A DNA stretch of 64,000 nt, from IMG/VR virus record IMGVR_UViG_3300031257_000001, positions 40,327-104,326 of that record; one strand, 5' to 3'. This document shows, one piece after another, positions 6,087 through 50,771 of the stretch. This stretch comes from a virus. Numbering within the stretch: position 1 is the stretch's first letter; each line of letters opens with the position of its first letter. The notes beneath the pieces were generated by a model that saw only the letters and a list, made by a program, of their open reading frames with translations, ran no database searches and was not told the origin of the DNA. The position numbers and the translations under genes are program-made.

Positions 6087-6162
6087 CGCGTACCGCAACA
6101 ACAGAACCACCGTTCGGTGGACCTATCAAGGCGGGCCATGACTCGCCGATTGGAGGTGGCCG

Positions 6163-7247: not shown

Positions 7248-7259
7248 AGGCAAATCAAG

Positions 7260-31539: not shown

Positions 31540-32724
31540 ATGAGCGTACGCAACGAAGCGCTAGATGACAAGGGCCGCGAGCGAGTTCAGTGCCTGCGCT
31601 GCAAGGCCAACGGCGTGGTGTCGTACTATCACCGTCTTCAGAAGCACCTACAGACATCGCACGGCATGTCGCTGGACGAGTATGAAGTCCACCACCCCGG
31701 AGCGCCGGTGAAGTCATCGACTGCGGAGCGCGCAGACCAGCGCGCCAAGAAGGCAAAGGCCGACATCCATCCGAAGCCCACCGCGGACGACACGCACGCT
31801 GACGACGGCGAGGACCCAGTGTACACGTTCGGTTGCGCGCACATCGTGGGACGGGTTGACCTCGATGGTGATGACAAGTCACACGTCCCACATCATGACG
31901 AAGGGTGGAATGTCGGAGCGTCTGAGCAAGCCAGCCTTGAGGCGCTTGCCCTCGGAATCGAGACCAACCAGAATGTTCTCATCGTGGGGCCTCCTGGCGT
32001 CGGCAAGAGTACGCTTGCCCGGGAGCTGGCCGCCATCGCCAACGCTCCGCTGCGTTACTTGCCCATCAACGGCGAGATGCGCACAGATGATCTCATGGGC
32101 GGCGACCAGCTGCTGGTAGACAAGGAGACAGGCCAGACTGTCACCCAGAACGTGGATGGGCCGTTGCCGGAGGCCGGTGAGCGTGGCCATTGGGTCCTGT
32201 TCGATGAGTTCGACAGCCTCCCGAGCCACGTGGGATTCATCCTGCACGGAGTGCTGGAGGCGGAACGGAAGCTCACGCGCGCCAACGGGAATCGGGTGGA
32301 GTTCAGCGAGCACTTCCGCGTCATCGCCACTGCCAACACCCTCGGGTTGGGCGATGACACAGGACAGTTCGCTGGGACGGCGCCGATGAACCGCGCGTTG
32401 CTCGACCGGTTCGGCATCGTCATCAGGGTGGGCTTCCCGGAGCAGGAGGATGAGATTGAGATGCTTGTCAGGAAGGCCGGCTTGCGTCGCAACGTGGCGG
32501 AGAACATGGTCAAGATCGCGCGCCAAGTTCGTGAGGCCGTTGCCAACGATACCACCAATGCCGACCTCAGTCCGCGCCGGCTTTTGATGTGGGCTACCAC
32601 CACCAAGAAGATGGGCGGGAACGTGGTCAAAGCGGCCCGCTACACTATCATCAACCGCCTGTCCAAAGAGGATGGCGACTTTGTCTCAGGTCTCATTCAG
32701 CGCACGTTCGGGGGGACGCCATGA
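31540..32724 (+). CDS. MoxR/CobS/CbbQ-like AAA+ ATPase with N-terminal C2H2-like Zn finger
   Basis: GPPGVGKS, VLFDEFD, 'FRVIATANTLG', 'ALLDRF', 'LSPRRL'; CLRC...H...H at the N-terminus. Confidence 0.88.
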   Translation: MSVRNEALDDKGRERVQCLRCKANGVVSYYHRLQKHLQTSHGMSLDEYEVHHPGAPVKSSTAERADQRAKKAKADIHPKPTADDTHADDGEDPVYTFGCAHIVGRVDLDGDDKSHVPHHDEGWNVGASEQASLEALALGIETNQNVLIVGPPGVGKSTLARELAAIANAPLRYLPINGEMRTDDLMGGDQLLVDKETGQTVTQNVDGPLPEAGERGHWVLFDEFDSLPSHVGFILHGVLEAERKLTRANGNRVEFSEHFRVIATANTLGLGDDTGQFAGTAPMNRALLDRFGIVIRVGFPEQEDEIEMLVRKAGLRRNVAENMVKIARQVREAVANDTTNADLSPRRLLMWATTTKKMGGNVVKAARYTIINRLSKEDGDFVSGLIQRTFGGTP

Positions 32725-32855
32725 GGCTCCTGTTCAACTTCCACAGTCTGAAGAAAGTTCCAACTGTGCCATCGAAAGTTCTAGCCCTCTCATCAAAAAC
32801 GCGGTAGATGTAGAGGGTGGCGTTGGCGAGACGCCACAACCTGGAGATCAGCAGA

Positions 32856-34943
32856 ATGAAAACAGCGAAGCGCTACCAGATTCCAGCAGAACTGCGCGGT
32901 CTGGTCGGCCCCTTCACCAAGATTGCGCGCGCGTTGAGTCGCAACCACCGCATCGAGGTCATCCCGTCCGGGACCCGGTGCGCGACCGATTGCCGCGGCC
33001 GCATCTGGATTCCGTTCAACGCCGACAAGCTCACCCCGGGCCTGCGCCAGAAGATGAATGGGATGCTCGACCACGAGACGGCGCACGTGGCTGAAGAGCG
33101 CGAGGCTCGCGAAGCCGGCCAACTCACCGCCCATGAGATCATGCACTCGGAGCGGAACAAGACCGTCAAGATGCTGATCAACGTGTTCGAGGACATCAGG
33201 ATTGAGCGCAAATGGGCTGAGCGCTACCCTGGAATGGCACAGAACCTCAGCGCCCTCAACGAGCAAACGGTGGAGCTGTTCGAGCGTCGCCATGGCTCTG
33301 GCGGGAACGCTTGGCACCAGGTTGGTTGCGCTATCATCTGCGCCGCGCGCGGACTGGGATGTGGTTGGCTCAAGCCTGAGCTTCAGCCGTACTTTGAGCG
33401 TTGCGAACAGTTCGTGGAGCGTTGCCCCGAGATGGTCTGGCCGGCGGATGCGCAACGACTCGCACAGGAAGCCCATGCAGAGTTGCTAACGCTGGCCGAA
33501 GAACAGAAGCGCCAGGCTGAAGAGGAACGCAAGCGACGAGAACACGAGGATGATGACGAGGGTGACGAGGAGCCCGAGGGCGATGATGAGTCCGAGGGTG
33601 ACGATGAGTCCGAGGGTGACGATGAGTCCGAGGGCGATGATGAGTCCGAGGGTGACGAGGACGATGACGATGGCGGCTCGTCCAGCGAGGATGACGACGC
33701 TGGTGGGGATGGTAACGAGCCTGGACCCTCGGATGATGACGATGAGGACGATGCAGACGATGGCAGCGAGGATGAGCCTGATGGTAGCGGTGATGGCGCT
33801 GGCGAGGGCCTGGGCGAGCTAGATGACGAGGACGGCGAGCCCGAAGATGATGGCGAGGCGGAGGCTGATGGCGAGGCGGAGGCTGATGGTGAAGGCGATG
33901 AGGGCGACATCGATCCTGACGACATGGCCGCCGGCGCCGATGAGATTCTGGAGTCCGATGCTGACGATGAAGATCTGATTGGCGCCATGCGCGACGACAT
34001 AGCAGAGCAGACGGACGTGGAGGCCAGCGACGGCGCCCACTACATCCCGCACCCCGCCCTGACCGACATGGACGGGTACGCCACCGAGGGCGAGATTGTT
34101 CGCAGGGGCGATGAGAAGACAGCCAGGGAGGCCCGTGATGAGGTGAGAGAGCAGGTCAGCACGCTCCGAGCCAAGCAGCTTGCCTACCTTCAGACGGTCA
34201 CCCGGACGAAGCGCCGTTGCGCACTTCGAGCCGGACGGCTGGATCGCAAGGCGCTGACCAAGGCGCGCATGGGTTCTGACCAGGTGTTTACCGACACCCG
34301 CAAAAACAGAGACTTGGACACAGCCATCGAGGTTTTGGTGGACATGTCTGGCTCGATGGGTCTGAATACACACCACACTTGTGCTGCGTACTACGCAATG
34401 CGCTGTGCGGTCGCCCTCGCAGAAGCGTGGGAAGGGCTGAGCATCCCTTGTGAGTTCACCGGCTTCTGGAACATCTCGCGCTACCCACCGCCTGATGAGC
34501 GGTTCGTGTGTCGAGGCGCCCTGCGCTACTTCATGATCAAAGGTTGGGATGAGAAGGTGTCCAAGACGCTCCCGAGATTCGGCGCCATCAAAGGGAAGGG
34601 CGACAACACAGATGGCGAGGCTGTGCTCCATGCGGCTCGTCGCCTTGCCTCACGCCGCGAGAAGCGCAAGATCCTGGTGGTCATCTCCGACGGCTTCCCG
34701 GCCGCTGCCAGGACCGACTCTGAACAGCTCAACGATCACCTCCGCGAAGTGGTCAAGATGATCACCTCATCAGGCATCGAGGTTCTGGGGATTGGCGCTG
34801 GCACCGACGCGCCCCGCCACTTCTACAACCAGGACACCGGAGCCAGGAATGTTGTAATCAGGGACATGAACTTGCTGGCGATCAGCGTGTTCAGGGCCAT
34901 GAAGGAGATGCTGGCAGCGCACGAGGGGAGGGCCGCGGCATGA
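32856..34943 (+). CDS. CobT-like VWA-domain protein with HExxH motif and long acidic linker
   Basis: 'DHETAH', 'NVFEDIRIE', MIDAS 'LVDMSGSM', 'NTDGEA', 'VISDGFP'. ATG 32856 follows GGAG. Confidence 0.88.
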   Translation: MKTAKRYQIPAELRGLVGPFTKIARALSRNHRIEVIPSGTRCATDCRGRIWIPFNADKLTPGLRQKMNGMLDHETAHVAEEREAREAGQLTAHEIMHSERNKTVKMLINVFEDIRIERKWAERYPGMAQNLSALNEQTVELFERRHGSGGNAWHQVGCAIICAARGLGCGWLKPELQPYFERCEQFVERCPEMVWPADAQRLAQEAHAELLTLAEEQKRQAEEERKRREHEDDDEGDEEPEGDDESEGDDESEGDDESEGDDESEGDEDDDDGGSSSEDDDAGGDGNEPGPSDDDDEDDADDGSEDEPDGSGDGAGEGLGELDDEDGEPEDDGEAEADGEAEADGEGDEGDIDPDDMAAGADEILESDADDEDLIGAMRDDIAEQTDVEASDGAHYIPHPALTDMDGYATEGEIVRRGDEKTAREARDEVREQVSTLRAKQLAYLQTVTRTKRRCALRAGRLDRKALTKARMGSDQVFTDTRKNRDLDTAIEVLVDMSGSMGLNTHHTCAAYYAMRCAVALAEAWEGLSIPCEFTGFWNISRYPPPDERFVCRGALRYFMIKGWDEKVSKTLPRFGAIKGKGDNTDGEAVLHAARRLASRREKRKILVVISDGFPAAARTDSEQLNDHLREVVKMITSSGIEVLGIGAGTDAPRHFYNQDTGARNVVIRDMNLLAISVFRAMKEMLAAHEGRAAA
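33558..33660 (+). repeat. 18-bp tandem repeat encoding EGDDES, about 5.5 copies
   Basis: GAGGGYGAYGATGAGTCC units within the acidic linker. Confidence 0.85.
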
Positions 34944-35965
34944 GTGTTGACAACATCACCATGCGCGACTTGTACCCGGAGCTGGAGGCAAGCCTGCGTC
35001 CTACCATGCTTCAAATGGCGCAGCAGTTCGCCCCGTCGCTGGGGATGGACGTGGACGATGCGATGCAGGAGGCCCGCATCGCCATCCACCTCGCGTTCCA
35101 ATCGTATGACTATAACCGGAGTCACGGTGGGATCAGGGCTTTCGCGCGCCAGGTGATCAAGCACACATTCTGTGGGTTGGCCTATGCGGCAGCGACTCGG
35201 GCCCGCTGCCCACACACAGTGTACACGGACGACTCCGGACAATCACAAGTTGTGAAACACCGCAAGCTCGCATCGCTGGAGGACTTGCTTGAGTCAGGTG
35301 GCTTGCAATGGCCGTTGAGCATGGAGTGTGAAGCGGAAGCCGAATTGGACACCCACCGTATCGCCGACAGGCTCATGGTCCTTCGGATGCGGTTGTACAA
35401 TCAATTGGGCCCACAGGAACAGCAGGTGTTCCGCCTTAAGGCTCGGCCCCCGGAAGCGTTCTTGGTGTTCCTACGCAACATCGGTGTGGACGCGGCCGAT
35501 GTGAATCACAAGCACATTGCGCGCTATCTTGGCACCACCAAGAATTCAGTGGACTACTCGTTGCTCAAGATTCGAGGCGACTTCAGGCGCCTTGCTGAGC
35601 ATGAATTCAGCGACCTTGTGGCAGACCTGATAAGAGACGGGGATTGGCCGATGGTTCACGTCAGCAACAACCCGAACGATGCCGCATTTGTGCGACAAGT
35701 CATACAGTCCAGAAAGCTGGACCCGCGTCCACTTCCACAACGTCGGGACATCAGGATCGGGTTAAGTGTCGGCCGGATCATCGAACGTTATCACTGGGGC
35801 GCCGTGCTCCACCTCAAGCTCCGCGACCACCGGGCGACCGTGGTTGTGGAAGGACGGTTCAACGAGAATACCGGGGATGTGTTTGGCCAACACGGCATCT
35901 GGAAGCCGATCACAGAGGATGTTCCCTGGTACAAGACCCTGGTCCAGGAGATTGATCGACCATGA
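34940..35965 (+). CDS. RNA polymerase sigma factor-like protein with C-terminal extension
   Basis: Region 2 'DVDDAMQEARIAIHLAFQSYD' and region 4 HTH 'HKHIARYLGTTKNSVDYSLLKIR'. Confidence 0.75.
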   Translation: MSVDNITMRDLYPELEASLRPTMLQMAQQFAPSLGMDVDDAMQEARIAIHLAFQSYDYNRSHGGIRAFARQVIKHTFCGLAYAAATRARCPHTVYTDDSGQSQVVKHRKLASLEDLLESGGLQWPLSMECEAEAELDTHRIADRLMVLRMRLYNQLGPQEQQVFRLKARPPEAFLVFLRNIGVDAADVNHKHIARYLGTTKNSVDYSLLKIRGDFRRLAEHEFSDLVADLIRDGDWPMVHVSNNPNDAAFVRQVIQSRKLDPRPLPQRRDIRIGLSVGRIIERYHWGAVLHLKLRDHRATVVVEGRFNENTGDVFGQHGIWKPITEDVPWYKTLVQEIDRP

Positions 35966-36807
35966 CTGAGAAACGCAAGATGCCACCGTGCCTAGGTGGC
36001 TATGAGAACAAGGACAAGATCTGCGACGGCAACCCCAAGGCAAAGGACGAGGGTGAGCATGCTCCATGCCTGTTCCGCGACCGCTGTGTTGGGTTCCAAT
36101 GCCTGCTCAAGGATCTGGCAGCCGCCGGCAAGCCTGGCGACGCTGAGGACTACTTGTCGGTCAAGAAGGTGGACGGTGAGGAATTTGCATTTGCCAAGAA
36201 GAGTGGCGATGCATTGGAGCTAGCCATCGACAAGCGCATCGCCAAGTATGGCGTCAAGGATGGCAAGATCACCGTCCCGAGGGGCCGCAAAGAGAAGCCT
36301 TCCAAGAAGGCCCCTGCTGCCAGCAAGAAGGCATCTGCAAAAGGCGCTGTGCAAGAGTCCAAGGAGCCCGACGAATCAGCAGACGATGCCAGGGAGCTGT
36401 GCGCTTGGTTCACATCTAAGCTGCAAGAAGCAACCGGGCGGGCCGTCCACGACCTCCCCGGCGACTGCGAGGCCGGCGAGCTGTTCATCATCGATCGGCA
36501 TGAGAAGTCCAACTATGCCGCGGTTTATGCCAGGGGCGACGTGAGTCACAAGGTGGCTGTGGCCTCGATGTACCCGAACCGCCGGACAGGGACGCTGCAG
36601 ATCAGGGTGGCGGCGCCATTCGAGGCGTTCATGAAGGGGTTGTCCAAGGCGTCACGCTCCGCATTGGAGCCGGAGGATTACACCGGCAAGGACGGCCGGT
36701 TCAGGGTGCGCATCAGCGGCCTGGACAAGGAGGGCGCTTCCATTGTCGCTGAATCCGTGTCCGCTGCCATCAGCAGCGGTATCATCAACTTGCCTGGGAT
36801 TAGCTGA
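35962..36807 (+). CDS. hypothetical protein (Cys-rich N-terminus, Lys-rich linker)
   Basis: 281-aa ORF overlapping the upstream stop (ATGA); typical codon usage. Confidence 0.7.
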   Translation: MTEKRKMPPCLGGYENKDKICDGNPKAKDEGEHAPCLFRDRCVGFQCLLKDLAAAGKPGDAEDYLSVKKVDGEEFAFAKKSGDALELAIDKRIAKYGVKDGKITVPRGRKEKPSKKAPAASKKASAKGAVQESKEPDESADDARELCAWFTSKLQEATGRAVHDLPGDCEAGELFIIDRHEKSNYAAVYARGDVSHKVAVASMYPNRRTGTLQIRVAAPFEAFMKGLSKASRSALEPEDYTGKDGRFRVRISGLDKEGASIVAESVSAAISSGIINLPGIS

Positions 36808-36912: not shown

Positions 36913-37899
36913 ATGAAGGTCGCCATCGTCGGTGGGGGCATGAGCGGTTTGGTTGCCGCGTATGTCTTCCAGCAGTACCGTGACATCAGCGTCACCATCT
37001 ACGAGCCGGGCCGCCCGGGCGTAGCGTTCCTCGCCGGCGGGCTGAAGTACATCCACCGGACGGATGAGACGGTTCAGATGCTCCACGACCACAGCGTGGT
37101 CTTCACCAACTACACCGTCCGTGGAGGGATCTTGCTCCATGGGACTGTCGAGCAGTATCCCGGTTGCTTCTCTGGAATGCAGCCAGAACGTTCCAAGCGG
37201 ATCCAGGAGGATCATTGGCGCAAGACTCGGCACACAGAGCCGGGTGACTTCAGCCTCCGCTCGATGAACGATCCGGAAGCCAGCGGGCCGCGCCGGGCCC
37301 TCCGGTGCGCGCTCAACGAACTGGTGGACGCGATGCTTGCCGATGTTCATGTCAGACCGGAGGCCATCAAGCGCATCGAGCCCAACAGGCTGATTGGCAG
37401 GACTGGGCAGCCGTATGGATTCCACTACGCCATCGTCACCATTCCCCTCTGGATTGTGCGGTGCATGGTGGATTGGCACATCCCCGAGGCGTATGCGATG
37501 AAGCTCAACGTGGTCACGGCAGAGCCGCTTCGCGACCCGTTCGCCAGGTGGGACTACGTGTACACGCCATACACGCCGGCGAGCCTCATCCACCGCATCT
37601 CACCGACTGAGAATGGCTACAGTTGTGAGTTCAACGGGGCTTGGGAGGAAGGCGCAACCAATGACCGTGTCGCCTCTGATCTGAACTTCCTGTTCCCATC
37701 AGGTTGGGTGATCAACGACGTGAAGCGGAATCTGAGCGGGCATCTTCTTCCGCTCCCGGAGCGACCCAAGTGGCCAGACAACATCAAGCCTCTGGGCCGC
37801 TTCACACGATGGGAACCGAGGGCCACGACGGACGCCACACTGCGCGACGCACATAAGCTGGCGCAGGAGTGGGGATGGGAGCTCAAGAGGATTGACTGA
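36913..37899 (+). CDS. FAD-dependent oxidoreductase (Glf/HemY-like Rossmann fold)
   Basis: 'MKVAIVGGGMSGL...TIYE', 'IVTIPL', C-terminal 'LGRFTRW'. Confidence 0.8.
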   Translation: MKVAIVGGGMSGLVAAYVFQQYRDISVTIYEPGRPGVAFLAGGLKYIHRTDETVQMLHDHSVVFTNYTVRGGILLHGTVEQYPGCFSGMQPERSKRIQEDHWRKTRHTEPGDFSLRSMNDPEASGPRRALRCALNELVDAMLADVHVRPEAIKRIEPNRLIGRTGQPYGFHYAIVTIPLWIVRCMVDWHIPEAYAMKLNVVTAEPLRDPFARWDYVYTPYTPASLIHRISPTENGYSCEFNGAWEEGATNDRVASDLNFLFPSGWVINDVKRNLSGHLLPLPERPKWPDNIKPLGRFTRWEPRATTDATLRDAHKLAQEWGWELKRID

Positions 37900-38902
37900 T
37901 TGGACCAGAGGCAAACACCCGTGCGGGTGTGAGATGGACATGCGGCTGAAGTGCGTGAAGCACTGCGGTGGCCACGGAATTCCGCCGGATCAACCCGCAA
38001 GTGATGCGTTCGGCGTGATGTGGGATGAGCAATCCGGTCAGCAACGCGAGTTGGGCTTGGATCCGGAGCATTTGGATGATGTAGAGCGCGGCCGAGTCAT
38101 CACCGACATCGTGGCCCAGGCACATGAAGAGGTGTCTGAGTTAGGTCGGCTCAGTTCCGCTTACAAGCGCCATCTCCTGTCTCGACCTCGAACGGACCCG
38201 GCCATGGTCGCTGAGGAAGTGGCAGACGTGCTCAAGTGCGCCATCGCGGCCGCCCAAACGTTCGGCCTCACCTCGTTGGACGTGGTGGAGGCTTTCTCGC
38301 GCAAGACAATGACAGTCTCGGAGCGGGCCCGGCAAGAGCGTGTCCGGCTTGAACAAGAGACGCCAATCCTGTGTTTCGACTTGGACGATGTCATCTGTGA
38401 CTTGTCGCCATGGCGGCAGGAGCTTGACGGCGGGATTGACGTGGATGCCCCGCCGGCGGACAAGCTCGCCTCCGCCGAACGTCTCAAGGAACAGTTCTAT
38501 GAGGGCGGACGATTCCGTGAGATGGAACCAGTTCCTGGCGCCAGAGAGGCGTTGGGGCGGTTCACCTCGGAAGGCTTCCACATCATCATCATGACGGCCC
38601 GTCCTCAGTGGCAGTACAAGCGGCTGTACGGCGACACGGTTGAGTGGCTGCTGGAACACGGGATCCCGTTCCACCGGATCATGTTCAACAAGGACAAGGT
38701 GGAAGCGGTGTACCAACACCTGGTTCCGGGCTGGCCAATGTTCTTCGTGGAGGACCACGAACGAAACATCAAGGCGTTGGCTTCAGTGGGGATCCATGTA
38801 CTTGTGTATAATCAGAAGCACAACGAAGGAATCCAGGACACCGAGAACACCACGCGCGTGTACGATTGGCGTGAGATTGAAAGGATTGTGTTGGGGACAT
38901 GA
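37892..38902 (+). CDS. MazG/dimeric-dUTPase-like NTP pyrophosphatase fused to a HAD 5'(3')-deoxyribonucleotidase
   Basis: 'HEEVSEL...YKRH...EEVADV' followed by 'CFDLDDVI...MTARP...K...FVEDH'. Confidence 0.82.
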   Translation: MTDWTRGKHPCGCEMDMRLKCVKHCGGHGIPPDQPASDAFGVMWDEQSGQQRELGLDPEHLDDVERGRVITDIVAQAHEEVSELGRLSSAYKRHLLSRPRTDPAMVAEEVADVLKCAIAAAQTFGLTSLDVVEAFSRKTMTVSERARQERVRLEQETPILCFDLDDVICDLSPWRQELDGGIDVDAPPADKLASAERLKEQFYEGGRFREMEPVPGAREALGRFTSEGFHIIIMTARPQWQYKRLYGDTVEWLLEHGIPFHRIMFNKDKVEAVYQHLVPGWPMFFVEDHERNIKALASVGIHVLVYNQKHNEGIQDTENTTRVYDWREIERIVLGT

Positions 38903-40029
38903 CAAGCTACTTGATGAGGACGCTCGACCGATATCCAATCCAGTTCGCCTCCGGCGACGGCTCGTGGTTGGTCACTCCGGATGACGAGAGCTATCTGGAC
39001 TGGTTCACAGACGTGGGGACCGCTTCATTGGGCTACGGATCGCAGGAGGCACGGACGGCGATGGGGCGGATGGTCAGCAGCAGAATCCCATTCCACACGC
39101 CCAACTTGTTCGGGTGCCCAGAGCGCGAGCGGGCCGCGGAGCGCCTGTGCAAGGCGACTGGGATGGAAAGGGCATTCTTCTGTAACAGCGGAGCTGAATC
39201 CGTTGAGGCAGCCATCAAGCTCGCCCGTCTCAACACCCACAACAAGCTGGTCGCAGCGGTTGTGGGCTCGTTCCACGGCAGAACCTATGGGGCGCTGGCA
39301 TCCGGCGACGGCGGGAAGCACCACTATGAAGGGTTCGGACCGCTGCCAGGGATGTTCGTACATTGGGAGCCGCCCGAGATGCCTCCGCCTGAAGTTGGGA
39401 TCGTCATCATTGCTCCCATCTTCGGAAACAACGACGTCCAAGTGTACGGCGCATGGTTGAAGAGGCTTCAACGTTGGTGCCAACAGGTCAACATCCTGCT
39501 CATCTTCGATGAGGTCCAGACAGGCTCTTGCCGGGCCTCCGGAACCATGAGTTATTCGCACCACATCGGAGTGCTCCCTGACATCCTCTGCTTGGCTAAG
39601 GGTGTGGCCATGGGAGCGCCTGTCGGGGTCACCCTATCACGCAACGGGTTGGACTTCAGCCCCGGAAGCCACTTCAGCACGTTTGGCGGTGGACCGCTGT
39701 CAGCGGTGATGGTGAACGCGATGATCGACTGGTCCGAGAAGCACCAGCAGACCGTCGGGACCGTTGGGCGCTTCATCCGCAGGCGGTTGAAGGAGCGTAA
39801 ATGGGCCAAGAATGTACGTGGCGAGGGGATGCTCATCGCGTTTGATTGGGATGGCGATTGCTTGGGATTGGCAGCCGCCGCCTTTGAGGAGCGCCTGCTC
39901 ATCGGGGCGTTTCGCCGGGGCCCGGGCCCGATCAAGATCACACCGCCGTTGAACATCGTTCCGGCAGATATCAAGTTCGGGTTTGAAGCGCTTGATCGTG
40001 CTGTGGCGAGGTCAGAGGGTGCTTCCTGA
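38899..40029 (+). CDS. class-III PLP-dependent aminotransferase (ArgD-like)
   Basis: 'FFCNSGAESVEAAIKLAR', 'SFHGRTYG', 'IFDEVQTG', 'PDILCLAKG' (PLP Lys), 'HFSTFGG'. Confidence 0.9.
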   Translation: MTSYLMRTLDRYPIQFASGDGSWLVTPDDESYLDWFTDVGTASLGYGSQEARTAMGRMVSSRIPFHTPNLFGCPERERAAERLCKATGMERAFFCNSGAESVEAAIKLARLNTHNKLVAAVVGSFHGRTYGALASGDGGKHHYEGFGPLPGMFVHWEPPEMPPPEVGIVIIAPIFGNNDVQVYGAWLKRLQRWCQQVNILLIFDEVQTGSCRASGTMSYSHHIGVLPDILCLAKGVAMGAPVGVTLSRNGLDFSPGSHFSTFGGGPLSAVMVNAMIDWSEKHQQTVGTVGRFIRRRLKERKWAKNVRGEGMLIAFDWDGDCLGLAAAAFEERLLIGAFRRGPGPIKITPPLNIVPADIKFGFEALDRAVARSEGAS

Positions 40030-41098
40030 TTATACGCAAATGTTCCCAGAGGGAATCTTTGAAAGCGACAGCATGGAGATCAACATGACAAAGGAGCCGA
40101 AAGTCACACTGGTGACGCACACTCGGGACCCTCTGGAGACGGTGTATGCCGTCTGGAAGGCCAGCAAGGATGAGGAGCCGCTGATGACAACGCAGGCGGT
40201 GAAGCTGACCGTTCCAGATGGCAAGGTCAGAGACCTGTTCCGCCGGGTCATCGCACAACGCATTCCGGTTGGCGAGCACGTGGACTTCGTGTTCATGGTC
40301 GAAAACATCAGCGTCAGCTGGCGTGAGCAGGCTGTGCGCCATCGCATCGGCGTCAAGCCCTCCCCGGAGCGCGTGGGCGCCGACATCGTGATGATGGACA
40401 GGATCCCGGACCTCGCCGAAAGCAGTTGGTGGTCGCAAAGTATGAGATTGATGGACATGGGGAAGTTCGCTCAAAACGGAGCATTCAGGCTTCCGGCGAC
40501 AGTGGAGCGCGATTCCAAGCTCACCCAGATGTTCATCGAGACCATGTTCACCATCCAGCGGACCTACAACGTTCTGGTGGAAGCAGGCATCCCAATGGAG
40601 GATGCGCGTGAGCTCATGCCGCTCGGAGCCCAGCATCGCATCTCGTGGAAGCTCAACATCGGGGCGCTGCAACATATCGTCTCCAAGCGTGGCTGCTTCA
40701 TCCTGCAACTTGGGATCTGGGGGCCTGTGATCCAGGGGGTGATCACCGAGCTGGTCCAGAAGGTTGACCCTGTGTTCTCAGAGTTGGTCACGCCGCCGTG
40801 CCTCGATGGCAACACGTTCAAGGGGTGCGCGTTCCACGAGGAGTGCCGGCGCCGGATCAGCGGCGAGGACGCTCTGCCGCCTTGCCCGCTCCACTTCCGG
40901 CATCATCACATCCCCGAGAAGATGGGGAATGGCGACGACATCGCCCACGCCCACACGCCCGAGGTTCAGGACAAGTACCACTTGCCCATGGCTGAAGAGA
41001 TGCGGGCTCGTGCCGAGGATTACATGCGGTTCTGGTACCGTGACCCGTACACCGGCGAGCGCTTGGGTACATCGAACGTAGCGATGAGGCTGATGTGA
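40019..41098 (+). CDS. divergent ThyX-like flavin-dependent thymidylate synthase homologue
   Basis: 'EHVDFVF...EQAVRHR', an insertion, 'SWWSQSMR', 'EDARELMP'; Cys-rich C-terminus. Start codon uncertain. Confidence 0.78.
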   Translation: MLPDYTQMFPEGIFESDSMEINMTKEPKVTLVTHTRDPLETVYAVWKASKDEEPLMTTQAVKLTVPDGKVRDLFRRVIAQRIPVGEHVDFVFMVENISVSWREQAVRHRIGVKPSPERVGADIVMMDRIPDLAESSWWSQSMRLMDMGKFAQNGAFRLPATVERDSKLTQMFIETMFTIQRTYNVLVEAGIPMEDARELMPLGAQHRISWKLNIGALQHIVSKRGCFILQLGIWGPVIQGVITELVQKVDPVFSELVTPPCLDGNTFKGCAFHEECRRRISGEDALPPCPLHFRHHHIPEKMGNGDDIAHAHTPEVQDKYHLPMAEEMRARAEDYMRFWYRDPYTGERLGTSNVAMRLM

Positions 41099-41637
41099 TC
41101 ATCGTCCTGGAGGGGCTCAACGCTACCGGCAAAAGTTCAGTGGCGGAACAGCTTCACGGTGATTGGGGGTATCCAATCATCAGGCTGTTCCGCTGCTGCA
41201 GCGACGACCACCTGGACGGCAGCCGGGTGGAGCACCTCCGATCGTTGGGCATCCCTGTCAACACGTATGTGGAGGATGCCTTCGTTGCGGACTTCTTGGT
41301 GAGGACGGGCGCCCACGCCACACTGGACCGCTCGATGCCCAGCGGGTTGGCCTACGCTTTGGTGGAGGACAGAATCGACAGCGAGCAGGTCGGGCCGCTG
41401 ATGAGGCTCTGGTGCGACACGCTGCGCAAAACCAAAGTCCACGTCATCCAACTCCACGCATCGAGGGCGGAGCGTGAGCGCCGGATTGAGGGCCGCGAGA
41501 TTCACCCGCAAGACGGCATTCTTGAAGAGTGGCTGGATGAGATCATGGAGTTGTGCGACCTCCCGATGACGAGGGTTGACACCACGACGTTGTCCAAGGA
41601 GGCCACGCTGAAACGCTGTCTGGAATGCCTACGCTGA
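41095..41637 (+). CDS. deoxynucleoside monophosphate kinase (thymidylate kinase-like)
   Basis: 'MIIVLEGLNATGKSS' P-loop and 'LDRSMPS'. Confidence 0.8.
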   Translation: MIIVLEGLNATGKSSVAEQLHGDWGYPIIRLFRCCSDDHLDGSRVEHLRSLGIPVNTYVEDAFVADFLVRTGAHATLDRSMPSGLAYALVEDRIDSEQVGPLMRLWCDTLRKTKVHVIQLHASRAERERRIEGREIHPQDGILEEWLDEIMELCDLPMTRVDTTTLSKEATLKRCLECLR

Positions 41638-42035
41638 AGGAGCTCAGGAATTGGGCGCGGGGCGAGGACATCGCCGGGCTGCCGGAGCAGTCTGTGCGGA
41701 CTTCGCCATCCCAACGAGAACACCCCGGGCGAGTCAAGATGCTGGAGCGTTTGGAACAGCTGAAGCTCCAAGCGCGGACCGCCGGCGGACAGCAGACGGG
41801 GATGTACAAGATCAGCACGGGCGGCGACGATGCTTTGATCAAGTTCGGGAAGCACGCCGGGAAGGCGTTGTCAGTGATCATGGATGAGGATCCGACCTAT
41901 CTGGCGTGGATGCTTCGTGATGACGATGACGGCCAGCCTCGGTTCGATTCCGTCTTGCTTGATGTGGTGAAGTATGTACAGGAATCCCACTGGAAGAAAG
42001 CGCGTGAAGAGCGCGCAAAGGGGCGCCGGAGATGA
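41625..42035 (+). CDS. hypothetical protein with FGKHxG motif (DUF3820/ExoX C-terminal-like)
   Basis: 'IKFGKHAGKALSVIMDEDPTYLAWM'. Confidence 0.65.
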   Translation: MPTLKELRNWARGEDIAGLPEQSVRTSPSQREHPGRVKMLERLEQLKLQARTAGGQQTGMYKISTGGDDALIKFGKHAGKALSVIMDEDPTYLAWMLRDDDDGQPRFDSVLLDVVKYVQESHWKKAREERAKGRRR

Positions 42036-45000
42036 GCAAGCCTGACGACATCGTTCACCTCCACGTCCACAGCGACATGTCCAATCTGGACGGCTGCGGC
42101 AAGATTCCGGACTATGTGGCCGCGGCCAAAGCCAGAGGTCACCGGGGCGTCGCCTTCACCGACCACGGGACGATGCGCGGGTACATGACCCAGCACGAGC
42201 AGTGCAAGGAGCACGACGTCAAGCCCGTCTATGGCCTTGAGTTCTATGTGTCTCCTGACATGCGGAGGCGTGGGCTCACCGAGGATGAACGGGCGGACAT
42301 CACCCGGGACCTCCCCAAGTCAGAACACAAAGCTGCCATCAAGAAACATGAGGAGCACGCAGGGATCCGCGACCGTTGGCACCTGACCGTTTGGGCCCTC
42401 GATCAGGTTGGTCTGCAGAATTTGTACAGGCTCTCATCCGCGGCGTGGATTGAGGGGTTCTACTACAAGCCACGCATCGACCTCGATGAGCTGATCAAGT
42501 ACGGCGTAGGGTTGGCGGTCGGCTCCGGCTGCTTGGCGTCGCCCATCAACGACTGCTGGGTGTTGGGTAGGCAGAAGCAAGCGCTGGGGTACGCCGATCG
42601 GTTGGCGGATGCGTTCGGCGACAGGCTGTACCTGGAAGTCATGCCACACGCCATTCGGGATCAGCGCCTTGCCAATGGGCTGATGCTCAAGCTCCGCAAG
42701 CGGTACGGCAGCCGGGGTGTTCGCTTGCTCGCAACTCAAGACGCCCACTATGTGGAGCAGGCAGACGCTTGTCACCACGAGGTTCTTCTGTGTATCGGGA
42801 CCAACTCCATCCTGAGTGACCCAGAACGCTTCAAGTTTGATGGCAACGAATTCCATTTCAAGACGCGCAAGGAGATGATTAGGAGCTTCCGGCGGAACCA
42901 TGAGTTCATGCCAGACAGCGCCATCCGAGAAGCGTTGAACACCACGCTGGAGCTTGCGGAGCGCGTGAGTGCCAAGGTGGAGGTGGACTACCACAAGGCG
43001 TTGCTTCCTGATTCAGGCATCCCGGCAAAGTGTGATGGCAACGCATTTGCCTATCTGCGCGATTTGTGTCTGGACGGATGGAAGTGGCGTGAGATTCCCA
43101 AGCGCGCGGCCGCCTATGCCGCCGTCCACGGAGTCAGCAAGCCAGAGGCGCTGGCCATCTACCGCGACAGAATGAAGTACGAGATGGGCGCGCTGGTCCG
43201 CCAGAGGTTTGTGCCCTACTTTTTGATGGTTCACGACATCTACCGCTTCGCACGCGAGGCACACATCATGACCGGGCCCGGGCGCGGCTCGGTTGCCGGA
43301 TCGCTTGTTGCCTACTGCTTGGGGCTTACAGCTGTGGATCCCATTGAGTTCGGCTTGATCTTCGAGCGCTTCATCAACCCGGACCGCATCGACATGCCGG
43401 ATGTGGACATGGACTTCGAGGACAGGCGCCGGTCTGAAATCATGGACTATTTGCGCGCCAAGTACGGCGAGGACAAGGTGTGCCAGATCGCCACCATTGG
43501 GAAGCTGTCGGGGAAGCAGTGCATCCGCGACGTGAGCCGGGTCCTTCAGGTCCCACTCAACGAGGTGAACCAGGTCACAGCGTCGATCATCGAGCGTAGT
43601 TCAGGTGATGAGCGTGCCAGTCAGACCATTGAGGACAGCTTCCAGGAGTTTGCAGTGTGCCGTGCCTTCAACAAGCGGCATCCAGAAGTCCTAGAACACG
43701 CCCGCAAGCTGGAGGGGATGGCCAAGAACCTCGGGATACACGCGGCAGGCGTCGTGGCATCCCCGGTCCCGTTGACGGACCTTCTGCCGTTGGAGATCCG
43801 GAAGCACGACGGCCGCGACCTTGTGGTGAGCGCCGTGGATATGTACGGCGTGGCCTCGACTGGACTGGTAAAGCTGGATGTTCTCGGGCTCCGAACGCTC
43901 ACAGTGATCAAGGAGACGCTGGAGGCCATCGACCGGCGTCACGGTCGGCACATCGACATGGAATCCAGGGACATCGACCTGAACGATCCCAAGGTGCTAC
44001 AGGGATTCACCGACCACAACTTTGGAGGTGTGTTCCAGTACGACACGACCAGCGCGGCCGCGGTCTGTCGTGGCGTGAAGTTCGCCCACTTTGAGGATGT
44101 GGCCGCACTCACCGCACTGAATCGCCCGGGCACCTCCCGGTCGGGCCTCGCCACTGAGTACGTGAGGCGAAAGAAGAAACCAAAAGAGGCTGAAAAGGAT
44201 CATTTCCATCCGTTGGTCAGCAAGATCACCAAGGACACCCTTGGGATCATCGTGTACCAAGAGCACGTCATCCGCATCTTCATCGAGGTGGCAGGCTTCG
44301 CTCCCGGCACGGCTGACAGCCTGCGCAAAACCATTGCCAAGAAGATCGGCGATGAGGCCATGGGCAAGGAGCGCGAAAACTTCATCAGGGGCGCTTGGGA
44401 GCACTCCCGGGTGGACCGAGCCACGGCGGCCAAGATAATGGACGCGATCACTTTCTTCGGCTGTGTGCCATTCTGGACGCAAATCGCGATTCCGCTTGAC
44501 GGAGAACGCTCAATTGGTGTAACGGCTAGAACCTTGCCGATCGATCTGGTTCGACCGGGCGACGAAGTCTGGAGTGTGGACGAGCATTGGCGTTTGGTTC
44601 GGAACCGCGTCAAAAACGTGGTGGCGACAGGGCGAAAGCCGTTGTTCCGAATCGTCGCAAAGATACATGACGGCAACAGGAGGGTCACAGTCGAGGCTAC
44701 CGCTGGCCACTATTGGTTGCTCGTTTCGGGGAAATATGCAAAGACGGAACAGCTCAAGTCAGGCGACGTCATCGCGTATCGGAACCGAACGGCGTTGCGT
44801 GTCGATGTAGCGATCGTCCAATTGATCGAGCCGGTGGAGTTTGTCGGTGACGCAACCACTTATGATCTTGAAGTGGAGAACGAGCCACACAACTATGTCG
44901 CCGACGGATTCGTTTGTCACAACAGCTACGGATTCAACAAAACGGTCGGCCGGTCTGCGATGGTGTGGAAGGCCGGAGCGAATGCTAGCGATCCCAGGGG

Positions 45001-48000
45001 TCAAGTTTCAATAGGTGAAATTGCCGATAGGTGGAACGAGCGCAAGGATGGCACATGGTCTCCAATGGCTCGAAAATTGCGCTATGGCAGATTCAAAATC
45101 ATCCAGATGGATGAAGATGGGCGCTGTCGCCCAGCGCGCCTCATTGGAATCCATGATCACGGTGTCCAGCGCGTGTATCGGCTCAAGACAAAAAGTGGCA
45201 TTGAGACGCCGCCAATCAGCCGTAACCACCGTTTGATGACGTCAGAAGGGTACAAGTCCATAGCCACTGGACTCGGCCCGGGTGATGCGCTCTTGTTCAT
45301 GGGCGAGAACAAGGGCCATGATTATTGCTCCTGGTTTGCTGGCGGTGATAGGCAGTTTGCGCAGTCCGGTAGGGTGAATGACGCATACCGCGCGACGGTT
45401 GCTGCTGTTTGGAAGCGTGACGGTGGCAAGTGCTCCGAGTGTGGCGCGAAGTGCGAGCATGGGCGTGGCGGATCCGAGGTGGCCCACATCTGGTCGCCGG
45501 CCGAATGCGATTACAACAAGGCTCTTTTCCACTCTGAGGCAAATCTGCGTCTGTTGTGTAATTCTTGCCACAAGCGTCTTGACTATGAGAAAGGTGAGCG
45601 CCAAAGGCGATGGAGCAAGGGCAGACCGACATTTGCTGATGAGGTGGTTGAGGTCATCGATTCCGGCGAGGAGCATTGCTATGATCTTGAGGTGGACGCT
45701 CCGGGCCACAACTTCGTCACCGGGCCGGACGGAGAAACGCCGCCGGTCGTTTCCCACAACTCACACGCTACCGCATATGGCATGATTGCGTTCTGGTGCG
45801 TTCACGGGCAAACGCGATTGCTGGATTGGAGCAAGAAAGAGTACACCACGGTGGCACGTGCTTATCGGGAAGGCACAAGCATGATCGCTTGTTACGACGA
45901 ACGGACTGGGGGGACGATCGGCGGCAAAGTTAAGTGTGTGATTCGGACTGGCAAGAAGAAGGTATGGGAGGTGCGTCTGCGCTCCTACAAGACGCTTCGG
46001 TGTTCCTCTGATCACTTGATCTTGACGGACGAAGGATACAAGAAAGCGTCTTGCCTTCGCGTCGGCGATCTGGTCGCTTCGGAAAAGAGGCTTTCGCCTT
46101 CAAAGAGAGAATCTGTCAAGAAGAAGCTGCGACGCGCCGCGAAGGAACAATGGGCGGGGCTGTCTCCGGAGCAAAGAGCGTCGATGGTCTCCAAAGCGCA
46201 CGAGGCGTTGACGCCGGAATTTCGACGAGAGCACGTTTGGCGCGGCACAGCGGAAGACGGCCATAAGGTCTATTCATGGGGAGAGAAGTTGGTCGGTGAT
46301 TGGCTGTCGAGCCGTGGGCTGGAACACGAGACGCAACCTAGCGTCGGACGCGGCAAGCGAGCTGACTTCATTTGCCAAGGCGTGTACGTCGAATACGACG
46401 GGATGCGACGCGAAGAATCGTATTGGGAGGACAAATTCGGGGATCTGCCGTATGTCGTCGTTAAGCCGGGGGACGACTTGGACGATGTACTTTCGTTCTT
46501 GGTCGAGACGGGCAAGATCGTCGTCGGCGAAGAAGTCGCGTTCGAGCCGGTCGTCTTCGCAAGAAAAACGGAGCGCGTCGCGTTGATGTACGACGTCGTC
46601 ATGGAAGGCGAGCCGCACAACTTCCTGGCCAACAACATCGTCGTCCACAACTGCATGTGGCTCAAAACTTACTATCCTTTGGAGTTTTATTGGGCGTTGC
46701 TCAAGAACGAGCCTGACAGGCTTCGCATCCAGCAGTTCGCCAAGGACGCGAAGCAGCACGGCATCGCCCTCTTGCCGCCACACGTCAACGTGTCCGATGA
46801 CGTGTTTGCCATTGACGACGCCAGGACGGCCATCCGCGGTAGCCTCGTGGACATCAAGGGCGTGGGGAAGGCAGCTGCCAAGGCAGTCATCGCCAACAAG
46901 CCATACCGGAGTCTGCTGGACTTGGTGGACAGGGTTGAGCGCCGGGCCGTTCACCGAGGCGTCGTGGTCGCCCTCGCCTCCGCCGGCGCGCTGGAAGGGA
47001 TGCTACCCAACACCAGGCACTTCGTGGAGAACATCGACGCATGGTGGAAGGTGCTCACAGCCAAGGCCAAGCGTGCCAAGAAGTTGCGTGAACTTCTGGC
47101 TGCAGCGAGGGCGGAGCCGGACTGGCCGCCAGAGGACCGCGACCTGCTGGCGTCCCGGGTGAACCCGCTGGCGTTCGGCGCACACCCTGTAGAAGCCCAC
47201 CTCAAGGCGATTGGGCACCGTATCATGGTGCCTGCTGTCACGATGGCTGACGAGGACTTCTTCAAGCGCCACAACAGCAAGGGTGTGTACGTGATGGGGA
47301 TGGTCGTTGAGGTCAAGTACAACCAGATCGGCGACTTCAACACCGGAGAACTGCCCAGCGAGACCGAGAAGCGCCGGATGTTCTGGGGCAGCCGATACGC
47401 CAACATCAACATTGAGGAAAGGACCGGGACGCAGAACCGATTCAAGGTTGACTTCCACATCTTTGATGACCACCGGGCCATCGTGGACAAGGGTGTCGGG
47501 ACTCCGCTTGTGGCGTTCGCAACCCCAATGGCCTTCACAGGGACGTTCCGTGCCCACTTCTTGGTGGACATGGAGGTGCTCCGAGCCAAGCTCACATCCG
47601 GCGATGAGATGGATGTCTGGGAGAACATCGTTACCGGACGCCACCCGGCCCTCGTGTACCGCTGGGCATCGGAATCCGTCCGTGAGGAGCGCTCGACCAA
47701 CGCCAAGTTTGAAAAGTACGGTGGCCACTTCTGTGGTGTGGTCACACACATCCAGCCGAAGTATGACCGCAAGGGCGGGCTGATGGCCTACCTGGGATTG
47801 CTAGCCGGCGATGGCCGGTATGAGCGCGTGCTGGTGTTCGCATCGGTGTGGCAGCACATCAAGCGGAAGCTCAAACGCGGGATGCTAGTCAGGATGGAGT
47901 TGGAGCGTAAGCCGGATCGTGGTGGATGGACGTGCTTCTACAACGGCGGGCATGTCAAGTTCTACAACAGAAAGATTCCAGCCGCCACGCCGGCGGATGA

Positions 48001-48004
48001 GTAG
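42032..48004 (+). CDS. dnaE: DNA polymerase III alpha subunit with three inteins
   Basis: PHP 'HLHVHSDMSNLDG...FTDHG', 'GPGRGSVAGS', 'FERFINPDR...PDVDMDF', 'HAAGV', 'KLDVLGL', spliced 'SYGFNKSHATAY', 'WLKTYYP'. Confidence 0.96.
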   Translation: MSKPDDIVHLHVHSDMSNLDGCGKIPDYVAAAKARGHRGVAFTDHGTMRGYMTQHEQCKEHDVKPVYGLEFYVSPDMRRRGLTEDERADITRDLPKSEHKAAIKKHEEHAGIRDRWHLTVWALDQVGLQNLYRLSSAAWIEGFYYKPRIDLDELIKYGVGLAVGSGCLASPINDCWVLGRQKQALGYADRLADAFGDRLYLEVMPHAIRDQRLANGLMLKLRKRYGSRGVRLLATQDAHYVEQADACHHEVLLCIGTNSILSDPERFKFDGNEFHFKTRKEMIRSFRRNHEFMPDSAIREALNTTLELAERVSAKVEVDYHKALLPDSGIPAKCDGNAFAYLRDLCLDGWKWREIPKRAAAYAAVHGVSKPEALAIYRDRMKYEMGALVRQRFVPYFLMVHDIYRFAREAHIMTGPGRGSVAGSLVAYCLGLTAVDPIEFGLIFERFINPDRIDMPDVDMDFEDRRRSEIMDYLRAKYGEDKVCQIATIGKLSGKQCIRDVSRVLQVPLNEVNQVTASIIERSSGDERASQTIEDSFQEFAVCRAFNKRHPEVLEHARKLEGMAKNLGIHAAGVVASPVPLTDLLPLEIRKHDGRDLVVSAVDMYGVASTGLVKLDVLGLRTLTVIKETLEAIDRRHGRHIDMESRDIDLNDPKVLQGFTDHNFGGVFQYDTTSAAAVCRGVKFAHFEDVAALTALNRPGTSRSGLATEYVRRKKKPKEAEKDHFHPLVSKITKDTLGIIVYQEHVIRIFIEVAGFAPGTADSLRKTIAKKIGDEAMGKERENFIRGAWEHSRVDRATAAKIMDAITFFGCVPFWTQIAIPLDGERSIGVTARTLPIDLVRPGDEVWSVDEHWRLVRNRVKNVVATGRKPLFRIVAKIHDGNRRVTVEATAGHYWLLVSGKYAKTEQLKSGDVIAYRNRTALRVDVAIVQLIEPVEFVGDATTYDLEVENEPHNYVADGFVCHNSYGFNKTVGRSAMVWKAGANASDPRGQVSIGEIADRWNERKDGTWSPMARKLRYGRFKIIQMDEDGRCRPARLIGIHDHGVQRVYRLKTKSGIETPPISRNHRLMTSEGYKSIATGLGPGDALLFMGENKGHDYCSWFAGGDRQFAQSGRVNDAYRATVAAVWKRDGGKCSECGAKCEHGRGGSEVAHIWSPAECDYNKALFHSEANLRLLCNSCHKRLDYEKGERQRRWSKGRPTFADEVVEVIDSGEEHCYDLEVDAPGHNFVTGPDGETPPVVSHNSHATAYGMIAFWCVHGQTRLLDWSKKEYTTVARAYREGTSMIACYDERTGGTIGGKVKCVIRTGKKKVWEVRLRSYKTLRCSSDHLILTDEGYKKASCLRVGDLVASEKRLSPSKRESVKKKLRRAAKEQWAGLSPEQRASMVSKAHEALTPEFRREHVWRGTAEDGHKVYSWGEKLVGDWLSSRGLEHETQPSVGRGKRADFICQGVYVEYDGMRREESYWEDKFGDLPYVVVKPGDDLDDVLSFLVETGKIVVGEEVAFEPVVFARKTERVALMYDVVMEGEPHNFLANNIVVHNCMWLKTYYPLEFYWALLKNEPDRLRIQQFAKDAKQHGIALLPPHVNVSDDVFAIDDARTAIRGSLVDIKGVGKAAAKAVIANKPYRSLLDLVDRVERRAVHRGVVVALASAGALEGMLPNTRHFVENIDAWWKVLTAKAKRAKKLRELLAAARAEPDWPPEDRDLLASRVNPLAFGAHPVEAHLKAIGHRIMVPAVTMADEDFFKRHNSKGVYVMGMVVEVKYNQIGDFNTGELPSETEKRRMFWGSRYANINIEERTGTQNRFKVDFHIFDDHRAIVDKGVGTPLVAFATPMAFTGTFRAHFLVDMEVLRAKLTSGDEMDVWENIVTGRHPALVYRWASESVREERSTNAKFEKYGGHFCGVVTHIQPKYDRKGGLMAYLGLLAGDGRYERVLVFASVWQHIKRKLKRGMLVRMELERKPDRGGWTCFYNGGHVKFYNRKIPAATPADE
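44462..44923 (+). mobile_element. DnaE intein 1 (mini-intein, 154 aa)
   Basis: CVPFWTQI...ATAGHY...TYDLEVENEPHNYVADGFVCHN|S; no endonuclease domain. Confidence 0.92.
44942..45760 (+). mobile_element. DnaE intein 2 (273 aa, HNH endonuclease, Thr at position 1)
   Basis: FNK|TVGRS...SRNHRL...RDGGKCSECG...AHI...NLRLLCNSCH...CYDLEV...VVSHN|SH. Confidence 0.9.
45797..46651 (+). mobile_element. DnaE intein 3 (285 aa, PD-(D/E)XK/DUF559-like endonuclease)
   Basis: FW|CVHGQT...CSSDHLILT...SWGEKLV...RADF...VEYDG...MYDV...IVVHN|C. Confidence 0.9.
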
Positions 48005-50211: not shown

Positions 50212-50771
50212 GCCGTGCCGCGCGACATAGCTCCACGACAGCGGAGCATCTGACCCCGTTGTACGTCGTGGACGCTGCTAGGGAGGCGTTGGGTGGTGTC
50301 ATCGATGTGGACCCAGCGACCACCTTGAGGGCGAACCGGGACATTGGAGCCCGGTTCACCTTCACGCGCGACGAAAGCGGCATGAAGAACCGTTGGCCCG
50401 GCCACGTGTTCTTGAACCCGCCTGGAGGGACAGTCCAGACACGGCTGACCAAATCCAGTTCGGTCCTGTGGTGGGCGAAGCTGATGTTGGAGTGGACCAG
50501 AGGGCGGACGACCGCCGGCGTGTTCATCTGCTTCAGCGTGGAGATACTCCAAGCGGCACAGAAGGTTCGGCAGGTTCCGCAGCCGTTGGACTTCCCGTTG
50601 TGTGTCCCGGATCACCGCATCCCGTTCGACACGCTCGACAGTCGCGGCCGGCGCGTGTCACAGAAGGATCCGACGCACGCCAACGTCATCATCTACCTGC
50701 CATCAAGAGATGATCCAGGGGCCCTCCGGTTCCGCCGCGCATTCAAGGACATTGGGAGAGTGAGAACGTGA
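50208..50771 (+). CDS. phage DNA N6-adenine methyltransferase-like protein
   Basis: 'HLTP...IDVDPAT...W.GHVFLNPPG...RIPF'. The catalytic motif is NPPG rather than NPPY. Confidence 0.7.
   Translation: MSRAARHSSTTAEHLTPLYVVDAAREALGGVIDVDPATTLRANRDIGARFTFTRDESGMKNRWPGHVFLNPPGGTVQTRLTKSSSVLWWAKLMLEWTRGRTTAGVFICFSVEILQAAQKVRQVPQPLDFPLCVPDHRIPFDTLDSRGRRVSQKDPTHANVIIYLPSRDDPGALRFRRAFKDIGRVRT

Follow-up and report, generated by a model that had tools for sequence, protein, structure and literature searches.

Modified bases govern the fate of phages against restriction enzymes and other nuclease-based defences. In the Bacillus phages SPO1, SP8 and phi-e (thymidine replaced before replication by 5-hydroxymethyl-deoxyuridine, 5-hmdU) and, by an analogous pathway, in T4 (hydroxymethyl-deoxycytidine), a thymidylate-synthase-type enzyme acts on a deoxynucleoside monophosphate (dNMP) and is combined with a dNMP kinase, an enzyme that destroys the canonical deoxynucleoside triphosphate (dNTP) or dNMP, and the phage's own polymerase. 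In PhiW-14, SP10, ViI, M6, PaMx11 and SH-Ab 15599, modification is post-replicative: a 5-hmdU DNA kinase (5-HMUDK) is combined with an amino-acid or diamine:DNA transferase and with tailoring by pyridoxal-phosphate (PLP), flavin or radical-SAM enzymes, and 5-aminomethyl-deoxyuridine is formed as an intermediate in PaMx11 (PMC8989533, PMC13458397). Here we analyse a cassette of five genes in the uncultured phage represented by IMG/VR record IMGVR_UViG_3300031257_000001. The window, that is, the whole stretch of 64,000 nucleotides that was analysed, comprises bases 40327-104326 of this single 104,326-bp record. The cassette encodes a flavoprotein, a MazG–nucleotidase fusion, a class-III aminotransferase, a divergent ThyX-like enzyme and a P-loop kinase, and the five families recur together in related phages. 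We tentatively read it as a conserved, phage-specific nucleotide-pool pathway to an amino-bearing thymidine analogue that is used by the phage's own DnaE, a reading that we hold to be quite possible, though short of probable.

Organization and conservation of the cassette

The five genes occupy positions 36913-41637 on the + strand, and each overlaps its neighbour by 4 to 13 bases (Table 1). The fusion gene begins with a TTG that overlaps the flavoprotein stop by 8 nt, with the in-frame ATGs at 37934 and 37940 as alternative starts. The aminotransferase gene overlaps the fusion gene in an ATGA, and the kinase gene overlaps the ThyX-like gene in a GTGA. Although a longer open reading frame (ORF) for the flavoprotein opens at 36841, the alignment with homologues begins at the ATG at 36913. 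The ThyX-like gene is given as the 359-amino-acid (aa) form on record, its reading frame being open from 39983. Downstream, the DnaE start overlaps a small ExoX-like ORF in another ATGA. A preliminary description, made from the nucleotide sequence alone, had recognised five overlapping, translationally coupled genes and one small ORF before DnaE; the ORF coordinates agree with both, and the five gene identities it assigned hold at the level of fold or family.

To collect related loci, IMG/VR was scanned by pattern with the ThyX-like family alignment, which gave 51 loci, followed by tblastn and profile hidden Markov models. All five families occur together in 19 distinct IMG/VR loci, comprising 17 from the same DnaE clade and two more distant ones (L032 and L048); in two further loci (L039 and L044), three of the families are present: the ThyX-like enzyme, the aminotransferase and the kinase. 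The co-occurrence that the preliminary description had proposed to look for is thus present, and the five-gene grouping is more than chance. Three gene orders are found, which differ in the side of the ThyX-like gene on which the aminotransferase and the kinase lie. The flavoprotein gene always adjoins the fusion gene, and their order is constant. Among the ThyX-like enzyme, flavoprotein, fusion and kinase, the correlation of pairwise distances is r 0.69-0.85, with flavoprotein–fusion highest (0.85) and ThyX–flavoprotein at 0.81. The distances of the aminotransferase correlate least (r 0.48-0.60), and its gene is still present in 19/19 loci. Full-text literature searches retrieved no description of a ThyX–aminotransferase module, nor of the biosynthesis of 5-formyl- or 5-aminomethyl-dUMP (dUMP, deoxyuridine monophosphate).

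Several loci carry variants of the module. In L007 (180-1070), a gene for a SAM-dependent methyltransferase lies before the ThyX-like gene, and there is no aminotransferase gene between the ThyX-like gene and the kinase; this locus is the sole exception, and its contig ends 1 kb upstream, the module being seen in part. In L006 (8180-8983) and L009 (10145-10897), an ORF of 250-267 aa without a Pfam match lies inside the module and adjoins the ThyX-like gene.

The ThyX-like enzyme

The ThyX-like gene is the sole thymidylate-synthase-type gene of the genome. Its product passes the Pfam Thy1 domain cut-off (75 vs 24.8) and misses the equivalog cut-off of NCBIfam thyX (TIGR02170; 53.2 bits vs 87.9). 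When its AlphaFold2 (AF2) model is searched with Foldseek, it matches Thermotoga maritima ThyX (1o26/8req) with an E-value of about 5e-8, a TM (target) of 0.72 and 19% identity. The protein keeps the Gln-x-x-Arg-His-Arg and Ser-x-Ser-x-Arg motifs as well as the active-site arginines R197 and R224. However, RHR and SQSMR are separated by ~28 extra residues in 32/32 aligned members, so that the RHRx7S(x)R signature is split, and there is a C-terminal extension of ~110 aa. In all the members examined, four cysteines (C226, C261, C270, and C289) are invariant, and one of these lies two residues past an active-site arginine; we refer to this family as Cys4-ThyX. The score and the split signature are in accordance with the earlier view of the protein as a divergent ThyX. 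The family has 330 relatives, many of them on contigs of 90-116 kb, and a search of 185,579 genomes of cellular species gave none. The longer members of the family carry inteins, and a fusion with other module enzymes was rejected.

In phages with a family-A polymerase, two divergent ThyX paralogues flank a radical-SAM/SPASM gene directly 5' of the polymerase gene (L031:319-3330, L037:1800-6350, L042:1759-6124, and L050:5404-9954). Both paralogues keep the four cysteines and score under the thyX cut-off. Such a ThyX pair with a radical-SAM/SPASM protein may represent another type of tailoring module built on ThyX.

The flavoprotein

Sequence comparison assigns to the flavoprotein only a Rossmann FAD-binding motif (Pfam). 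Its AF2 model (pLDDT 92) best matches UDP-galactopyranose mutase (UGM), with a VIA-align Z of 26.7 and a root-mean-square deviation of 3.1 over 321/328 residues, at 12-15% sequence identity. Protoporphyrinogen oxidases follow at Z 23, about 3.5 Z under UGM, and monoamine oxidases at about 20. In accordance, Atlas places the protein in the amine-oxidase superfamily. The predicted fold is therefore that of the UGM/protoporphyrinogen-oxidase/amine-oxidase superfamily. The 210 detectable relatives are all ~320 aa long, and all lie on phage-like contigs.

The aminotransferase, the kinase, and the fusion protein

The aminotransferase has ArgD (2eh6; 1e-53) as its best match in the PDB, and the PLP lysine (Lys234) and Asp204 are invariant in its family. 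It scores 224.6 bits against the NCBIfam argD cut-off of 410, and lies under the cut-offs of the curated ArgD, GabT, putrescine-aminotransferase, and all other NCBIfam models. A bona fide ArgD was rejected because of this score and because the neighbours are nucleotide enzymes rather than enzymes of the arginine pathway; the preliminary description had remarked that ordinary dTMP synthesis has no place for an ArgD-like aminotransferase. Members fall into two length classes, of about 375-410 and 420-450 aa. A single-sequence scan of IMG/VR with the aminotransferase gave no match, and its matches among GenBank phage records are bacterial contaminants. In L020, the module holds two class-III paralogues (6129-7265 and 7728-8954), with the kinase gene between them.

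With its family profile (A4), the kinase retrieves SPbeta YorR from the PDB (3e-10), followed by thymidylate kinases. Members of the family match Pfam Thymidylate_kin in 14/20 cases, dNK in 8/20, and HMUDK in 0/20. The hhalign match to the 5-HMUDK of M6 (95%, E 1.6e-8) is one at the level of the superfamily.

The N-terminal half of the fusion protein is MazG-like and all-alpha, and is detected with the profile only; the C-terminal half is a HAD domain akin to the cytosolic and mitochondrial 5'(3')-deoxyribonucleotidases (cdN and mdN). In a PDB search with the family profile (A3), cdN/mdN score 2e-7, and the MazG-like 2q73, YpjD, 5ie9, and DCTPP1 score 1e-4 to 0.1. The EExxE...ExxD motif is conserved in the MazG-like half and DxDxV in the HAD half.

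Other nucleotide-metabolism and modification genes

The record is linear according to IMG/VR and is rated 100% complete by CheckV. In this whole genome we find no ThyA-family gene (PF00303), no second ThyX, and no ribonucleotide reductase (RNR), dCMP deaminase, or trimeric dUTPase. The cassette thus holds the only nucleotide-metabolism genes found, which argues against a general role in dNTP supply and fits a special product better.

The hallmark enzymes of the known post-replicative route are missing as well. The 5-hmdU DNA kinase and its helical partner HMUDK_hel (PF18748 and PF18723) have no match in the genome at E 0.1, and the amino-acid:DNA transferase (AADT) and aGPT-Pplase clade 3 (PF18724 and PF18746) have none either. 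Phage M6 served as the positive control for the kinase (1.1e-19) and transferase (2.3e-48) searches. Membership in a 5-HMUDK/AADT system is therefore rejected, and any modification would not proceed via the known post-replicative route, as the earlier suggestion of an undescribed pathway implies. A search for Tet_JBP, run without a positive control, gave no match in this genome or in Pbunavirus LS1.

Homologues in Pbunaviruses

Profile comparison links two enzymes of the module to the Pbunaviruses. In phage LS1, gp72, a ThyX (L059:8998-9915), matches the ThyX-like profile in hhalign at 98% (E 2.7e-13), and the hypothetical protein gp66 (L059:6788-7789) matches the flavoprotein profile at 96.5% (E 7e-10) over 262 columns, the C-terminal LGRFAxW included. 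By these profile matches, gp72 and gp66 are predicted distant homologues of the ThyX-like enzyme and the flavoprotein. An exonuclease gene and the gene for a DnaE-type polymerase follow downstream of both. Searches of LS1 gave no ThyA, HMUDK, or AADT, and gp74 was rejected as a homologue of the fusion protein or the kinase.

The virion DNA of the Pbunaviruses F8 and 14-1, formerly thought unmodified, has been found by liquid chromatography coupled to mass spectrometry (LC-MS) to contain new nucleosides derived from thymidine, of 362 u and 390 u (PMC12191111, a 2025 preprint). About one thymidine in four is replaced by them, within a TG motif; the two phages are without any gene earlier tied to hypermodification, and the preprint names no genes (PMC12191111). 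By mass arithmetic, 362 u and 390 u would correspond to 5-hmdU plus a tetritol or pentose, minus water. If so, a source of hydroxymethyl-deoxyuridine other than ThyA would be needed. We regard gp66 and gp72 as candidate genes for the thymidine hypermodification of F8 and 14-1. By analogy, the Pbunavirus homologues lend indirect support to the module as a modification pathway.

Genomic context

The phage has a G+C content of ~60%, and all long ORFs are on the + strand. No near relative is present among 50,697 GenBank phage records, where the best match of its DnaE is at 35%, to Streptomyces phages. The cassette likewise has no near or protein-level relative among GenBank phages except distant matches to ThyX; the kinase matches nothing.

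The surroundings of the cassette are a replication module (Table 1). DnaE is the presumed consumer of the cassette product. The ExoX-like ORF is the sole recurrent extra family between the module and DnaE (9 loci), and is probably an accessory of the polymerase and not an enzyme of the pathway. Directly 5' of the cassette, the genes for a sigma-70 region-2-like protein and a 281-aa protein are present in nearly all related loci, and may control expression of the cassette; scans for promoters and terminators gave matches at chance level only. The CobS-like and CobT-like genes farther upstream are conserved throughout the clade. Inteins interrupt three replication or recombination genes, those of the UvsW-like helicase, DnaE, and RecA. 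The replication module also encodes a family-4 uracil-DNA glycosylase (UDG), so that uracil itself is probably excluded from the phage DNA.

Table 1 Features of the cassette and the surrounding replication module (window positions, in genomic order)
Feature	Position	Strand	Basis
UvsW-like helicase (intein)	24101-26632		
DnaB			
Primase			
CobS-like AAA+ ATPase and CobT-like VWA protein	31540-34943		AAA_5/CbbQ_C (CobS-like)
Sigma-like protein (341 aa) and 281-aa protein without assigned family	34940-36807		sigma-70 region 2 (341-aa protein)
FAD flavoprotein, 328 aa, phage-only family	36913-37899	+	GxGxxG, Pfam NAD_binding_8/DAO Rossmann motif
MazG-like NTP pyrophosphatase + HAD 5'(3')-deoxyribonucleotidase fusion	37892-38902	+	Pfam NT5C 3.7e-17
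Class-III (omega-type) PLP aminotransferase, ArgD-like	38899-40029	+	Pfam Aminotran_3 (PF00202) 2e-53
Divergent ThyX-family flavoenzyme	40019-41098	+	Pfam Thy1 (PF02511) 8.8e-21
P-loop kinase, thymidylate-kinase/deoxynucleoside-kinase superfamily	41095-41637	+	own Pfam match weak AAA_33
ORF with ExoX-like C-terminal motif, 136 aa	41625-42035	+	Pfam ExoX-like_C 1.5e-7
DnaE-type polymerase with intein	42032-48004	+	Pfam PHP, DNA_pol3_alpha, finger, HHH_6, Intein_splicing
RecA (intein)	50768-52678		HNH domain also present
SbcCD-like pair			
HNH protein			
Flap endonuclease			
Family-4 UDG	59805-60380		

Proposed pathway and alternatives

In the pathway that we propose, the Cys4-ThyX-like enzyme would use methylene-tetrahydrofolate as the one-carbon donor for C5 of dUMP; reduction to methyl would not follow, and a hydroxymethyl product, or one with the exocyclic methylene otherwise trapped, would be released. 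ThyX delivers the methylene via a flavin iminium to C5 of dUMP, and the exocyclic methylene, normally reduced, could be trapped by a nucleophile (PMC8989533, discussion). The UGM/amine-oxidase-like flavoprotein would then oxidise or otherwise process the C5 substituent to a carbonyl, and the ArgD-like omega-transaminase would convert the aldehyde to a primary amine, giving, for example, 5-aminomethyl-dUMP. Class-III transaminases interconvert aldehydes and primary amines. The thymidylate-kinase-like enzyme would phosphorylate the new dNMP, and the MazG–nucleotidase fusion would degrade the competing canonical pyrimidine dNTP or dNMP to the nucleoside. The likeness of the kinase to thymidylate kinases and of the nucleotidase domain to cdN/mdN points to ligands of the dUMP/dTMP type (dTMP, deoxythymidine monophosphate). 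We infer the substrates, the order of the steps, the product, and its incorporation into DNA. Thus, of the modification pathway put forward in the preliminary description, the gene identities, the coupling, the co-occurrence, and the missing known machinery stand, and the chemistry stays at the level of conjecture.

Several observations weigh against this pathway and bring other explanations into play. The phage DNA is known from salt-marsh metagenomes as assembled contigs only, and within a single clade of phages, synteny may be kept through common descent without any functional reason. Our literature searches retrieved no natural transamination of a 5-formyl pyrimidine nucleotide. The Cys4-ThyX family retains all the nucleotide- and flavin-binding residues of ThyX. 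In phages that have no aminotransferase, flavoprotein, or fusion, it is found by itself immediately upstream of family-A polymerases, so that its function may be no more than dTMP synthesis. The flavoprotein goes with ThyX and not with the aminotransferase, also in Pbunaviruses, where no aminotransferase is present, and could be the redox partner of a plain dTMP synthase. The fusion also adjoins near-canonical ThyX genes (L054 and, weakly, L055), and so need not purge dTTP. LS1 has no homologue of the aminotransferase, fusion, or kinase, and the partial, TG-directed modification of the Pbunaviruses suggests a DNA-level step there. Taken together, the conserved active site, the solitary ThyX family, the ThyX–flavoprotein pairing and distance correlation with the aminotransferase lowest, and the fusion beside near-canonical ThyX genes are what ordinary thymidylate supply would look like: Cys4-ThyX a plain dTMP synthase, the flavoprotein its redox partner, the kinase a dTMP kinase, the fusion a house-cleaning or pool-balancing enzyme, and the aminotransferase an auxiliary metabolic gene that serves the metabolism of amino acids or polyamines and is merely carried along in the replication module. 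We consider this unlikely, though by no means negligible. Five genes would serve dTMP alone in a phage without RNR, dUTPase, or dCMP deaminase; the aminotransferase is kept through three rearrangements, two length classes, and the distant loci L032, L039, L044, and L048, and falls under the curated ArgD, GabT, and putrescine-aminotransferase cut-offs; and it would be wasteful to pair a dTMP synthase with an enzyme that takes pyrimidine dNTP to the nucleoside.

The likeness of the flavoprotein to a sugar-nucleotide enzyme, UGM, raises an alternative already mentioned in the preliminary description, namely that a small-molecule donor for modification at the DNA level, such as an amino-polyol, amino-sugar, or diamine, is produced or trimmed by the flavoprotein together with the aminotransferase. 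Once the DNA has been replicated, an unrecognised transferase would attach this donor to a base of the 5-hydroxymethyl type. The same may hold for Pbunaviruses, whose modifications occur in a TG motif and resemble derivatives of a polyol or a pentose; class-III transaminases do make diamines and amino-aldehydes. However, the genome has no AADT, aGPT-Pplase clade 3, or 5-HMUDK, no glycosyltransferase or other transferase was seen among the neighbours of the module, where the ExoX-like ORF is the only recurrent extra, and a thymidylate-kinase-like kinase and a pyrophosphatase–nucleotidase fusion suit pool-level chemistry better, so that we rate a side-chain donor as improbable. That the flavoprotein and fusion genes are always neighbours, with the highest distance correlation of all pairs, would instead suit chemistry at the sugar, with the fusion yielding a deoxynucleoside, the flavoprotein oxidising its 5'-CH2OH to an aldehyde, the transaminase giving a 5'-amino-5'-deoxynucleoside, and the kinase acting last; the outcome would be either an effector of the nucleoside-analogue type or a DNA precursor of an unusual kind. 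The nucleotidase would thereby gain a biosynthetic role, the kinase family does match deoxynucleoside kinases, and transaminases of uridine-5'-aldehyde occur in nucleoside-antibiotic pathways. Against it stand the Pbunavirus flavoprotein homologue, which occurs without nucleotidase or transaminase, and the fact that a natural 5'-amino DNA precursor is not known; we think it very improbable. An extension of it, which strikes us as more improbable still, would have the nucleotidase produce thymidine, the flavoprotein oxidise the 5'-carbon, the transaminase form 5'-amino-5'-deoxythymidine, the kinase N-phosphorylate it, and DnaE polymerise it into phosphoramidate (P-N) DNA. If true, this would be a natural, precursor-made modification of the backbone, with the sugar rather than the base altered.

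If the proposed pool-level pathway to an amino-bearing thymidine is true, it would be the first DNA-modification pathway begun by a ThyX-type rather than a ThyA-type enzyme, the first case of a transaminase acting on a nucleotide bound for DNA, and a route by which an amine-bearing thymidine is made wholly in the nucleotide pool. The DNA chemistry of a widespread clade of uncultured phages, each of roughly 100 kb, would thereby be defined, and gp66 and gp72 would become candidates for hypermodification in therapeutic Pbunaviruses. The module enzymes are of possible use for making modified DNA.

Comparison with known systems

The ThyX-like enzyme shares with canonical ThyX (T. maritima TM0449, PDB 1O26) the fold, RHR, SxR, and two further active-site arginines, and differs from it in the motif insertion, the C-terminal extension, the four invariant cysteines, and the low identity given above. 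Among phages, the Pbunaviruses PB1, F8, 14-1, and LS1 share with the module the ThyX and flavoprotein homologues near a DnaE-type polymerase, but are without the aminotransferase, the MazG–nucleotidase fusion, and the thymidylate-kinase-like kinase.

The post-replicative systems resemble the module in using PLP and FAD enzymes as tailoring steps and in the amine-bearing C5 side chains of thymine, which are here proposed. However, the PLP enzyme here is a class-III transaminase rather than a decarboxylase, the flavoprotein is predicted to be UGM/amine-oxidase-like, and the kinase is thymidylate-kinase-like.

With the SPO1/T4 type, the module shares its overall logic, a polymerase of the phage's own and what is, by profile, a putative dedicated dNMP kinase of the thymidylate-kinase/dNK superfamily; the MazG–nucleotidase fusion would take the part of the enzyme that destroys the canonical dNTP or dNMP. 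The one-carbon-transfer enzyme, in contrast, is ThyX-type (flavin-dependent) rather than ThyA-type, and an aminotransferase and a second flavoprotein are added. We rate the module as kin to precursor-level base replacement in phages, with a chemistry of its own that we infer.

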